Assembly (NCBI GenBank): GCA_000004985.1
Contig: GG739306.1
Source of the DNA: Naegleria gruberi
Lineage: Eukaryota
Direction: 5' to 3' (one strand)
Length of the DNA stretch: 1,908 bases
Part shown: piece by piece, positions 1 to 1,854 of the stretch
Layout: every line of letters starts with the position of its first letter
How positions within the stretch are numbered: the stretch's first letter is position 1
The notes under the pieces: generated by a model
The model's input: only the letters and a program-made list of their open reading frames with translations
Database searches by the model: none
What the model was told of the DNA's origin: nothing
Position numbers and translations under genes: made by a program

Positions 1-5
1 TAGTC

Positions 6-212
6 TCATAGCCTCTTCTTGTTCCTCCTTCTTTTTCGTTCTTCCTCCTCTCTTCTCTTTTTCTTTTCATCTATTATATCAGGAATAGTATTTCGTGGAG
101 AGTGGATCAATTCATGCATTTGTTCATAATATTTAGAATCCTTATCGAAATCTTTGATATCTTCAATATCCTTCACTTCAAAATCATCTATTCTCGTTGA
201 AACCATTATCAA
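6..212 (-). CDS. Open frame with a K/R/E-rich basic C-terminus (..DEKKKRREEEERKRRRNKKRL), ending at TGA 6-8. Probably exon 2 (6..187) of the upstream gene rather than a separate gene.
   Basis: The ORF track starts this ORF at a TTG translated as M (bacterial start rule); the first real ATG is codon 3. The frame is open from 230 down to 6. An acceptor AATAG at minus-strand 192..188 joins it in phase to the 290..616 ORF through a 113-nt intron (188..300). It lies only 77 bp from the upstream ORF on the same strand. Confidence 0.4.
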   Translation of the reverse strand: MIMVSTRIDDFEVKDIEDIKDFDKDSKYYEQMHELIHSPRNTIPDIIDEKKKRREEEERKRRRNKKRL

Positions 213-289
213 ACAATTGTTTGAAACAATTCAATATGATTAAATTCCAATATAAGTGTAAACTCATCTCCATCAAGAGAAAACAATAT

Positions 290-616
290 TCAAAACCTAC
301 ACCCAGTTTCAGGATATCTCTGTTTTAAAGGAACCAAATATTCATCAGCCAAGTCTTCTGATTTTAATCCAACCCCATTGGAAAATTTCGATGTAATTCC
401 TCTCTTCCGAGGTTTACTGAATGGTATCTCTGCTCCACCAGTTTCAATTCTCATACTTTTTAATAAATTAATGGCATTCTTCTTTTCCTCACTGACCATC
501 TTCTTCTTCAGCCGATCCAAATTTCTCAAATGAACATTCACCTGATTTGTTGTTTGCTCGATACTTCTACTGATGGACTTGTATTGAGCATTACATTCTT
601 GGTGTTGTTGCATCAT
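290..616 (-). CDS. Hypothetical small charged protein, 108-codon ORF starting ATGATG at 616. Probably exon 1 (301..616) of a two-exon gene.
   Basis: Uninterrupted 108-codon frame on the minus strand that starts with ATG ATG. Coding GC is noticeably higher than the flanking ~80% AT DNA, and codons such as AAG, GAG and CTG are used. The frame ends at TGA (290-292). A GTAGGT donor sits at minus-strand 300..295, just upstream of that stop. I could not recognise a family; the product is coiled-coil-like and charged. Confidence 0.5.
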   Translation of the reverse strand: MMQQHQECNAQYKSISRSIEQTTNQVNVHLRNLDRLKKKMVSEEKKNAINLLKSMRIETGGAEIPFSKPRKRGITSKFSNGVGLKSEDLADEYLVPLKQRYPETGCRF

Positions 617-732
617 TTTTTTAAATTAAATTTCATGACTGTAGATGAAAACAACTAAAAATGGCGGGAGATTACTAACAGGGTTACCTTAAATAAAATA
701 AACAGCCTGAATAATGATTCAAGAAGCGTCGA

Positions 733-743
733 TGGTTTAGTGG
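733..743 (+). promoter_or_regulatory. Pol III A-box of the tRNA-Gly gene (TGGTTTAGTGG).
   Basis: Matches the A-box consensus TRGYNNARNGG at tRNA positions 8-19. Confidence 0.7.
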
Positions 744-774
744 TAGAATACGGCGTTGCCATCGCCGTGACCCG

Positions 775-785
775 GGTTCAATTCA
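775..785 (+). promoter_or_regulatory. Pol III B-box (GGTTCAATTC) with its final conserved C replaced by the first base of the insertion.
   Basis: The B-box consensus is GGTTCGANTCC. Here GGTTCAATTC is followed by A785 instead of C62, so the insertion junction lies inside the B-box. Confidence 0.6.
777..784 (+). repeat. Target-site duplication, left copy (TTCAATTC, tRNA positions 54-61).
   Basis: Identical 8-mer at 1516-1523. The bases just outside differ (G776 vs T1515, A785 vs C1524), so the duplication is exactly 8 bp. Confidence 0.7.
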
Positions 786-951
786 TTTTGATAGTATGAA
801 TTATTGTGATTGTGTTGTTTCTCAATTTAATTTGGGAATTTCATTTCCCGTTCTCCAATGTTGTGAGCATTTTGCTTTTATTATTGTTAATTCTTTTTAT
901 TTAAATTTCTGTGCGTCGACCAATTATAAACATACTGTACATGTATTAAAA

Positions 952-964
952 TCCGTTACCCGAT
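952..964 (+). repeat. 13-bp perfect direct repeat TCCGTTACCCGAT, copy 1 (copy 2 at 997-1009).
   Basis: Read directly: aaaTCCGTTACCCGATgg versus attTCCGTTACCCGATag, 45 bp apart. Confidence 0.9.
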
Positions 965-996
965 GGTTAATATTTAATGTTATGGATGTATTAATT

Positions 997-1009
997 TCCG
1001 TTACCCGAT
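997..1009 (+). repeat. 13-bp perfect direct repeat TCCGTTACCCGAT, copy 2.
   Basis: Read directly. Confidence 0.9.
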
Positions 1010-1224
1010 AGTAAATTGTTTGAAAATGTAATTCATCATGTAATGTGTTAATTCAAAGTTTGTGAACATCATTAATGAATAAATTTTATTGTGATGACTC
1101 CTAATTAGGAAATTCCGTTTCCCTATACCCAATTATCAATATCTTTAATATTACATTATCAAAATTAATGTGTGAAATACATTTAAATAATAATTTAAAA
1201 AACATTGTATTAATTCAATTTCAG

Positions 1225-1238
1225 AATTGAATTCAATT
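1225..1238. repeat. Perfect 14-bp palindrome AATTGAATTCAATT centred on an EcoRI site.
   Basis: The sequence is its own reverse complement. AATTCAATT also occurs just upstream at 1212-1220. Confidence 0.85.
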
Positions 1239-1273
1239 GCCACATTAGGTAATTCCAAAACCCGTTACCTAAC

Positions 1274-1319
1274 TTCCAACTTTTATTTCCAACTTTCCAA
1301 TATTTCCAATATTTCCAAC
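1274..1319 (+). repeat. Degenerate microsatellite-like array of five TTCCAA units with period ~8-14 bp.
   Basis: TTCCAA at 1274, 1288, 1296, 1305 and 1314, in the run ATTTCCAAC / CTTTCCAAT / ATTTCCAAT / ATTTCCAAC. Confidence 0.8.
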
Positions 1320-1327
1320 ATTCAATA

Positions 1328-1365
1328 AAAGAACAACATTCAATGAAAAATTAAAGAACAACATT
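1328..1365 (+). repeat. Two copies of a 13-bp direct repeat AAAGAACAACATT (1328-1340 and 1353-1365).
   Basis: Read directly. Confidence 0.85.
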
Positions 1366-1373
1366 TGTTAATT

Positions 1374-1401
1374 ATTCAACATGATGTTTCACATCATGAA
1401 T
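1374..1401. repeat. 28-bp perfect direct repeat ATTCAACATGATGTTTCACATCATGAAT, copy 1. Each copy is an internal hairpin.
   Basis: Identical 28-mer at 1419-1446. Inside each copy, CATGATG (1380-1386) is the reverse complement of CATCATG (1392-1398) around a 5-nt loop TTTCA. The flanking ATTCA/TGAAT extend the stem with a 1-nt bulge. Confidence 0.9.
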
Positions 1402-1418
1402 TAAAAATAATGAACAGA

Positions 1419-1446
1419 ATTCAACATGATGTTTCACATCATGAAT
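1419..1446. repeat. 28-bp perfect direct repeat, copy 2 (hairpin).
   Basis: Read directly; it lies 45 bp after copy 1. Confidence 0.9.
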
Positions 1447-1515
1447 AATATTAAAATAAATAATTCATAATTTCATCATAAAATTAAAAGTTAAATGAAT
1501 TCCAAAAAAGGAAAT

Positions 1516-1523
1516 TTCAATTC
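1516..1523 (+). repeat. Target-site duplication, right copy (TTCAATTC).
   Basis: See the left copy; it is continuous with the tRNA 3' portion. Confidence 0.7.
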
Positions 1524-1535
1524 CCGGTCGACGCA
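1516..1535 (+). tRNA. tRNA-Gly(GCC), 3' portion: duplicated T-loop segment, T-stem 3' half CCCGG, acceptor 3' strand TCGACGC and discriminator A.
   Basis: CCCGG (1523-1527) is exactly complementary to CCGGG at 772-776. TCGACGC (1528-1534) is exactly complementary to GCGTCGA at 726-732. Joining 726..784 to 1524..1535 reconstitutes a canonical 72-nt tRNA. Confidence 0.8.
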
Positions 1536-1731: not shown

Positions 1732-1736
1732 AAAAA
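1732..1736 (-). terminator. Pol III terminator T5 for the 5S gene (plus-strand AAAAA).
   Basis: A run of five T on the minus strand immediately after the 5S 3' end GTAGTC. The first one or two U may belong to the mature RNA. Confidence 0.6.
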
Positions 1737-1854
1737 GACTACAGCACCACAGGTTCCCAAGTTGTCTCCAACCTCAGTACTGATGTGGCTCGACGATGCT
1801 TAACTTCTCAAATCGGACGGGATGAGGTGCATTCATCGTGATATGGCCGTAGCC
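1735..1854 (-). rRNA. 5S ribosomal RNA gene (~120 nt).
   Basis: The minus strand reads GGCTACGGCCATATCACGATGAATGCACCTCATCCCGTCCGATTTGAGAAGTTAAGCATCGTCGAGCCACATCAGTACTGAGGTTGGAGACAACTTGGGAACCTGTGGTGCTGTAGTCTT. It contains the universally conserved 5S blocks GGCCATA, CCCGTCCGAT, AGTTAAGC, AGTACT, GGAGAC, TGGGAA and GGTGCTGTAG. Helix I pairs 5' GGCTACGGC with 3' GCTGTAGTC. It is followed by a T-run. Confidence 0.88.

Follow-up and report, generated by a model that had tools for sequence, protein, structure and literature searches.

Two identical palindromic modules in a 731-bp insertion that splits a tRNA-Gly(GCC) gene of Naegleria gruberi: candidate recognition sites of a mobile element

A perfectly duplicated 28-bp palindrome in DNA of Naegleria gruberi is best understood as part of an insertion that splits a tRNA gene, and not as a free-standing feature. 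The insertion lies in the T-loop of a tRNA-Gly(GCC) gene, between two identical copies of an 8-bp sequence, and carries the palindromes in its right-hand part. Judged from the sequence, the palindromes most plausibly belong to a known kind of structure, namely recognition motifs that a non-autonomous or truncated mobile element carries in repeated form. We put the probability that the two 28-mers are cis-acting recognition modules of such an element at about 0.4. In the following, we describe the broken gene, the duplicated module and the other motifs of the insert, compare the insert with known mobile elements, and weigh the alternative explanations.

A tRNA-Gly(GCC) gene split in its T-loop

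The window, that is, the whole stretch of DNA analysed here, is a complete small scaffold of N. gruberi of 1,908 bp. Both ARAGORN and Rfam recognize in it a tRNA-Gly(GCC) gene that starts at 726 and has a poor 3' end, scoring 21.2 bits, below the gathering score of 29. The features that matter for its interpretation are as follows.

726-784, plus strand: 5' part of tRNA-Gly(GCC), 59 nt, up to the T-loop (ARAGORN, Rfam)
777-784, plus strand: left 8-bp direct repeat TTCAATTC, in the tRNA T-loop; target-site duplication or recombination core
785-1515, plus strand: 731-bp insert, 24.4% GC, with no ORF that has homologues and no terminal inverted repeats; holds the palindromic modules
1516-1523, plus strand: right 8-bp direct repeat TTCAATTC, identical to the left copy
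1524-1535, plus strand: 3' part of tRNA-Gly(GCC), CCGGTCGACGCA, 12 nt, which joins to 726-784
1736-1854, minus strand: complete eukaryote-type 5S rRNA gene (Rfam, 105 bits)

When 726-784 and 1524-1535 are joined in silico, a canonical tRNA-Gly(GCC) cloverleaf is obtained, in which TTCAATTC is the T-loop plus one base. An intact counterpart exists: the 71-nt join has 100% identity with an unbroken tRNA-Gly(GCC) gene at 207-277 of the metagenome contig L020, and the six bases upstream (CAAGAA) are also common to the two genes. The intact gene reaches 66.9 bits with the Rfam tRNA model, as against 21.2 for the interrupted copy. This contig (Ga0247722_10058881, 1-1473, 36% GC) is an environmental, Naegleria-like sequence that also carries a tRNA-Ile(AAT) gene at 47-119 and a 301-aa ORF at 564-1469.

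It was found by a metagenome scan with the 20-mer ending at the break, which returned 29 loci, the other 28 being unrelated. Those loci (L003-L019 and L021-L031; Ga0224501 and Ga0224511) hold a SINE-like repeat of tRNA origin in at least 28 copies, with a common T-arm 20-mer CCGTGACCCGGGTTCAATTC and a conserved body containing GTATTTCAAGGGATTTTTCCCTGGCTGATC. An animal present in the samples is their presumable source, and they have no relation to Naegleria.

The insert opens with the pol III terminator TTTT (786-789) and contains six more runs of four or more T, while the old terminator, T5 at 1548-1552, still follows the 3' tRNA remnant. Because the insert starts with TTTT directly after the break, and the original T5 terminator now lies beyond the insert, the gene is dead. 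An exact 8-bp duplication, with a target that is restored precisely in silico, is typical of staggered cuts made by an enzyme, which argues for insertion of a mobile element. We conclude that the 731-bp insert is in all probability a mobile element that entered the T-loop and inactivated the gene; that it belongs to a repeated family is a presumption, a single copy being visible.

The duplicated palindromic module

The modules and the spacer between them occupy 73 positions near the right end of the insert.

1374-1401, plus strand: palindromic module copy 1, ATTCAACATGATGTTTCACATCATGAAT, stem 1380-1387/1391-1398, loop TTC
1402-1418, plus strand: A/T-rich spacer between the modules, 7 of 17 positions identical (ungapped) to the 17 nt after copy 2
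1419-1446, plus strand: palindromic module copy 2, 28 of 28 positions identical to copy 1, stem 1425-1432/1436-1443

The initial annotation described these segments as perfect 28-bp direct repeats 45 bp apart, and this is exact: the start-to-start distance of the two copies is 45 bp and there are 0 mismatches. None of 200 dinucleotide shuffles gave a 28-mer match, even with up to three mismatches allowed, and in 500 dinucleotide shuffles of the insert no perfect direct repeat exceeded 16 nt, against 28 nt observed. The placement near the right end of an element also holds, as the modules lie inside a discrete insert whose right end is 69 bp beyond the end of copy 2.

Each copy folds, as had been proposed, and slightly better than into the 7-bp stem and 5-nt loop then given: CATGATGT/TTC/ACATCATG forms a perfect 8-bp stem with a 3-nt loop, to which an outer ATT/AAT pairing (three further A-T pairs) can be added across a 3-nt bulge. 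The folding energy of a module is -6.6 kcal/mol as DNA and -8.3 kcal/mol as RNA, the hairpin z lies at about -2.4 to -2.7, and the 101-nt region that holds the modules has a fold z of -2.55. A perfect 8-bp stem is nevertheless expected by chance in about one third of 731-bp sequences of the insert's composition (P = 0.36), and a palindrome at 1212-1233 has a stem of 9 bp. The duplication of the inverted repeat, which had been called striking, is thus significant as a duplication, and the hairpin alone is unremarkable. The two hairpins are one module copied in a single event, not two independent hairpins. A random 28-nt block of insert composition has a perfect stem of at least 8 bp only about 0.5% of the time (P about 0.005), so that dyad symmetry and copying are linked. 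This leaves two readings, a palindrome that works as a functional unit or a stimulation of local copying by palindromes.

The edges of the module are sharp, a T/A mismatch bounding the shared block at both sides. Both spacers consist of A/T runs only, in which slippage occurs readily; aligning the two 17-nt spacers needs at least two indels and at least two mismatches, and a 45-bp tandem duplication yields them in neither phase, as read by eye from the sequence. For four changes placed at random over 45 nt, the probability that all four lie in the spacer is (17/45)^4 = 0.02 (hand arithmetic). Given such spacers and the many short duplications just upstream, rate heterogeneity could mimic constraint here. 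The identity of 28 of 28 positions, loop and bulge bases included, looks more like recent copying than like long-term selection.

The modules stand on the right side only, and no inverted counterpart was found at the left end of the insert. CATCATG occurs again at 1034, and a weak module-like copy at 1050-1084 is marginal (P = 0.025). A supposed third tandem module at 1461-1492 was rejected as not significant (P = 0.18).

Ends, composition and other motifs of the insert

The GC content of the insert (24%) is lower than that of the flanking intergenic DNA (29%). Its ends read ATTTTG... on the left and ...GGAAAT on the right, where CCAAAAAAGGAAAT is followed directly by TTCAATTC, an A-rich end with no clear tail. 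Terminal inverted repeats were not found: the first 60 nt aligned with the reverse complement of the last 60 nt score 13, compared with a null mean of 12.4 (P = 0.46). Only four terminal bases match (ATTT/AAAT), and sliding the boundary within the 8-bp repeat brings no gain. With the ends aligning at null level, a foldback or terminal-inverted-repeat structure was rejected, and no significant sub-terminal inverted repeat was found in the insert either. The 71-aa ORF of the insert and a 1,070-aa six-frame composite of 617-1735 gave no protein match (composite at E<=10), and no transposase, recombinase or reverse transcriptase (RT) remnant was found in the insert. At E<=1, Rfam yielded no match in the insert and no intron or ribozyme family; its matches in the window are the 5S rRNA, the broken tRNA and one chance snoRNA-like match over the 5S gene. 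The fold of the whole insert has z = -2.9, a value that comes from only 20 shuffles and in large part from local palindromes.

Besides the modules, the insert holds the following repeated motifs.

941-971 and 986-1016, plus strand: left repeat pair, 87% identical over 31 nt, core TCCGTTACCCGAT perfect, spacing 45 bp
953, 998, 1115 and 1262 (span 953-1269), all plus strand: four copies of CCGTTWCC, inside the insert only
1212-1233, no strand assigned: 9-bp-stem palindrome AATTCAATT-TCAG-AATTGAATT, from the T-loop/target-site heptamer TTCAATT
1284-1322, plus strand: tandem array of TATTTCCAA, 9 bp in 4.4 copies, just upstream of the modules

CCGTTWCC occurs four times against an expected 0.05, and none of 200 shuffles matched this count. 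Its first two copies (953 and 998) are part of the 31-nt left pair. The left (941-1016) and right (1374-1446) pairs are unrelated in sequence, and both have a start-to-start distance of exactly 45 bp. This shared spacing of two unrelated pairs hints at a structural constraint. The initial annotation had read the motifs as a left arm, a core and a right arm. Their organisation is indeed non-random, as the four CCGTTWCC copies demonstrate, but the three-part picture is neater than the sequence: these copies span 953-1269, beyond any left arm, and the insert lacks terminal inverted repeats. The surroundings, described earlier as poor in repeats, are not so: the array at 1284-1322 and several further short direct repeats lie directly upstream of the modules. 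The reverse complement of CCGTTWCC, GGWAACGG, contains the Myb/Ac-transposase-type core AACGG.

Some pieces of the insert resemble its target. In mid-insert, at 1212-1240, AATTCAATT-TCAG-AATTGAATT-CAATTG amounts to three copies of the heptamer TTCAATT, whose count is mildly raised (6 vs 2.3 expected). The tRNA acceptor 3' strand GGTCGACGCA (1526-1535) has an exact inverted copy, TGCGTCGACC, at 912-921 in a GC-rich island 127 nt from the left end (P about 0.03). Decayed tRNA 3' ends left by serial integrations were rejected as a source of the internal motifs, no ungapped match reaching 15/26. A relaxed ARAGORN search for tRNA-like or SINE heads returned only sub-threshold noise (at <=80% of default thresholds), inside and outside the insert.

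Searches for further copies

The exact 23-mer AACATGATGTTTCACATCATGAA had 0 matches in the metagenome, viral and prokaryotic genome collections, and a relaxed form of the palindrome was absent from the 34 loci examined. No copy was found by the translated route (71-aa ORF and six-frame translation of 617-1735), which detects only near-identical, gene-called copies. A viral scan with TTTCCGTTACCCGATAG gave three matches, which were rejected as chance because their GC content is 48-62% and the agreement is limited to the 17-mer. Plasmid records held no similarity to the insert, and the only match to a sequence printed in papers was an unrelated fungal primer. A search of the literature on Naegleria transposons that target tRNA genes returned nothing.

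Comparison with known mobile elements

Several families of mobile elements share one or another property with the insert. hAT and P elements make 8-bp target-site duplications (TSDs) and are defined by terminal inverted repeats (TIRs); in hAT, CACTA and P-type elements, motifs repeated in the sub-terminal few hundred bp are transposase-binding sites, for example AAACGG of Ac. The CCGTTT/CCGTTA of the insert is the reverse complement of AAACGG/TAACGG. Its duplication also has the 8 bp of hAT and P elements, and its excision in silico restores the exact intact tRNA. It differs from hAT, CACTA and P elements and from MITEs in having no TIRs at all and in that its palindromic module is one-sided. 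A MITE or another DNA transposon with TIRs (hAT, P, Merlin, Novosib) fails on the TIRs (P = 0.46), though an 8-bp TSD is present.

Helitrons have no TSD, insert at A/T, carry 5'-TC...CTRR-3' ends and have a hairpin 10-12 nt from the 3' end; this class is ruled out by the 8-bp duplication, by the ends ATTTTG.../...GGAAAT and by hairpins that lie at least 69 bp from the end. Introns of tRNA genes sit at position 37/38 or at a bulge-helix-bulge junction and can be transcribed by pol III. A tRNA intron of the canonical or bulge-helix-bulge type, as well as a group I intron, is ruled out by the T-loop position, the TTTT start, the 8-bp duplication and the lack of an Rfam match.

A T-loop flanked by the symmetric T-stem is a classic crossover site of tyrosine integrases, and Williams is said to have distinguished, in 2002, sublocation classes of prokaryotic integrative elements in tRNA genes. 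The insert is like these elements in that the core duplicated here comprises the 7 nt of the T-loop and one further base. It is unlike them in that the target is a eukaryotic nuclear gene, the tRNA 3' end is not restored, no integrase is encoded, and attP-like symmetry at the joined insert ends extends over only 4 bp (AAAT/ATTT).

Among eukaryotic elements, Dada transposons insert inside multicopy small-RNA genes, those of tRNAs and snRNAs, including tRNA-Gly, and are without TIRs (PMC3706591, PMC8869645). Their TSDs are 6-7 bp and sometimes apparently 8, the apparent 8 bp of Dada-U1 having been interpreted as 6; short sub-terminal repeats are thought to aid recognition (PMC3706591, PMC8869645). 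Internally deleted, non-autonomous derivatives have been described, as has a protist host, Perkinsus marinus, and within tRNA genes insertions have been reported at nt 8-13 or in the anticodon arm (PMC3706591, PMC8869645). The insert resembles Dada, as far as one known insertion can tell, in sitting in a small-RNA gene, that of tRNA-Gly(GCC), in having no TIRs and in carrying short sub-terminal repeats. However, its T-loop site is not among the reported Dada sites, its apparent TSD is 8 bp, and it contains no sub-terminal inverted repeat that echoes the target, TGCGTCGACC being the only target-like piece.

Non-LTR retrotransposons in tRNA genes are represented by NeSL-1_TV in tRNA-Pro and by LIN15_SM and LIN25_SM in tRNA-Arg and tRNA-Glu (PMC4640811). 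Site-specific non-LTR elements are comparable to the insert in their position within a tRNA gene and in the lack of TIRs; their TSDs vary in length, and 5'-truncated copies that retain only the 3' UTR are common. The reverse transcriptase of R2 and of the stringent-type LINEs recognises stem-loops close to the 3' end. The 731 bp of the insert differ from this class in holding no RT or endonuclease remnant, a test that a copy consisting of the 3' UTR only would escape, and in a 3' end (...CCAAAAAAGGAAAT) that is A-rich without being a clear tail. Membership in the Dada, non-LTR, TIR or tyrosine-recombinase families cannot be claimed.

Recognition modules and alternative explanations

The reading that we favour, tentatively, and which agrees with the paired binding sites suggested in the initial annotation, is that the modules would serve an element's own machinery in cis, with the enzyme coming in trans. 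A mobile element of 731 bp, AT-rich and non-coding, would have entered the T-loop of the tRNA-Gly(GCC) gene and duplicated the 8 bp TTCAATTC, and the two 28-mers would be copies of one dyad-symmetric module in its right-hand subterminal region. Two kinds of element come into question here, a Dada-like DNA transposon and a site-specific non-LTR retrotransposon truncated at its 5' end. In the Dada-like case, the modules might act as inverted half-sites (ACATCATG, with a 3-bp spacer) for a dimeric transposase or recombinase; in the case of a 5'-truncated non-LTR element, the reverse transcriptase might recognise them as a pair of stem-loops lying 70-140 nt from the 3' end of the RNA. A tyrosine-recombinase route is conceivable via the T-loop core, the symmetry of the joined ends being 4 bp only. 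The mobility class, the trans-acting enzyme and the binding function are thus what we infer, in conditional form, for the observed insert and its repeats. CCGTTWCC, a second motif family that is confined to the insert and present four times in one orientation, supports a role as recognition modules. The sharply bounded, identical modules next to divergent spacers, and the rarity of such a stem in a random 28-nt block, speak for more than a random duplication. The one-sided position, the unremarkable hairpin, the duplication-prone region, the recent look of the loop and bulge identity and the missing transposase, recombinase or RT remnant argue against a function as recognition sites.

The main rival is neutral duplication, which we rate slightly less probable than recognition modules. 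A palindrome that arose by chance in AT-rich non-coding DNA would have been copied about 45 bp downstream by slippage or template switching, processes favoured by hairpin-forming sequences, after which the spacers changed fast, with no function involved. The chance frequency of an 8-bp stem, about one in three such sequences, fits this explanation, and so do the signs of local duplication activity upstream (the 9-bp array of 4.4 copies and the short direct repeats). Perfect identity, loop and bulge included, suggests a recent event; neither another copy nor a homologue came up in the metagenome, viral, prokaryotic and translated searches, and the putative third unit at 1461-1492 is not significant. 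However, a simple recent tandem copy predicts identical spacers, and only 7 of 17 positions agree. Chance would also have to provide a duplicated block that is palindromic (P about 0.005, unless palindromes drive copying), and an unrelated second motif pair in the insert repeats the very same 45-bp spacing. A more specific form of the mobile-element reading is unlikely as a whole: the insert would be a non-autonomous member of an undescribed TIR-less family of Heterolobosea that targets tRNA T-loops, Dada-like or tyrosine-recombinase-like, and its enzyme-binding iterons would be the 28-bp palindromes and, likewise spaced at 45 bp, the CCGTTACC motifs.

Iterated perfect palindromes with variable spacers resemble the iterons of replication origins, and the insert might accordingly be filler DNA captured at a staggered break from an rDNA plasmid, the mitochondrion or an episome, the palindromes being remnants of origin or control iterons. 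The low GC content of 24% against 29% in the flanks and the missing TIRs would suit such a source, which we still consider improbable, since a clean duplication of 8 bp, whose removal with the insert gives back the exact target, speaks of enzyme-made cuts and not of random capture. No protein, rRNA or tRNA similarity points to mitochondrial DNA and no plasmid record matches, and the origin-like element of the initial annotation found no support. The small hairpin RNA proposed there fared no better. If the region were transcribed, a small structured RNA (miRNA- or siRNA-like, snoRNA-like or other) might be processed from the stem-loops or consist of them, and the stable RNA fold of each unit (-8.3 kcal/mol), the z of -2.55 over 101 nt and the likeness of ATGATGT to a C box would be in line with this. 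But no D box (CTGA) follows ATGATGT, no Rfam family matches at E<=1, and a stem of 8 bp is too short for Dicer-type processing. Pol III read-through is blocked by TTTT at 786-789 and the further T-runs, transcription of the 5S gene on the minus strand stops at 1732-1736, and no promoter is evident, which makes a small RNA very improbable. More improbable again is a host regulatory function, in which the modules would be dyad-symmetric transcription-factor sites acting on an adjacent gene (5S, tRNA or protein-coding). Dimeric factors typically have sites with dyad symmetry and a 3-bp spacer, as in the modules. The modules, however, lie in DNA that is absent from the intact tRNA gene and have no tie to any promoter; the 3' end of the 5S gene is 290 bp away, with the modules downstream of it, and the start of the protein gene lies more than 750 bp off, past the dead tRNA gene.

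Significance of the insertion

Targeting of small-RNA genes is so far known from Dada and a few non-LTR lineages (PMC3706591, PMC8869645, PMC4640811). If a T-loop-targeting family of the kind outlined above exists, the insert would be the first small-RNA-gene-targeting element in Discoba, and the first eukaryotic element at the T-loop site that is favoured by prokaryotic integrases. Target-specific transposition into small-RNA genes would thereby extend to a deep-branching lineage and to a new tRNA site, and the modules, as candidate enzyme-recognition sites, would be of practical interest for targeted integration. If, on the other hand, the insertion happened only once and the local duplication is private to it, the insert represents ordinary genome decay, and would mainly explain the unmerged 1.9-kb scaffold and the pseudogene-like score of the tRNA.

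The scaffold and its neighbouring genes

The scaffold probably represents either a haplotype that was not merged or a contig of lower quality. Its ORF at 290-616 (minus strand, 108 aa) is 100% identical to an N. gruberi predicted protein (NAEGRDRAFT_76972), and another N. gruberi protein, of 287 aa and encoded on a scaffold of 358,576 bp, is identical over its first 105 residues and continues into the second ORF of the window. Because of the identity to this latter protein, positions 1-616 (minus strand) are taken to duplicate the NAEGRDRAFT_70788 locus of the main assembly. The NAEGRDRAFT_76972 model is exon 1 read into the intron (about 200-301). Pfam reported no domain in the flanking ORFs.

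Two contigs from a public 'metagenome' run (L001 and L002; ERR1078381, PRJEB11402) are 99% identical to N. gruberi nuclear DNA, and overlap with the window at 2-308 only. Relative to L001, the window has a 1-bp deletion near 36, at its left end, which leads to a frameshift in exon 2. At the other end, the 5S rRNA gene has its T5 terminator at 1732-1736 (minus strand) and is about 200 bp from the tRNA 3' remnant; in this genome, 5S and tRNA genes thus occur close to each other and scattered among protein-coding genes.
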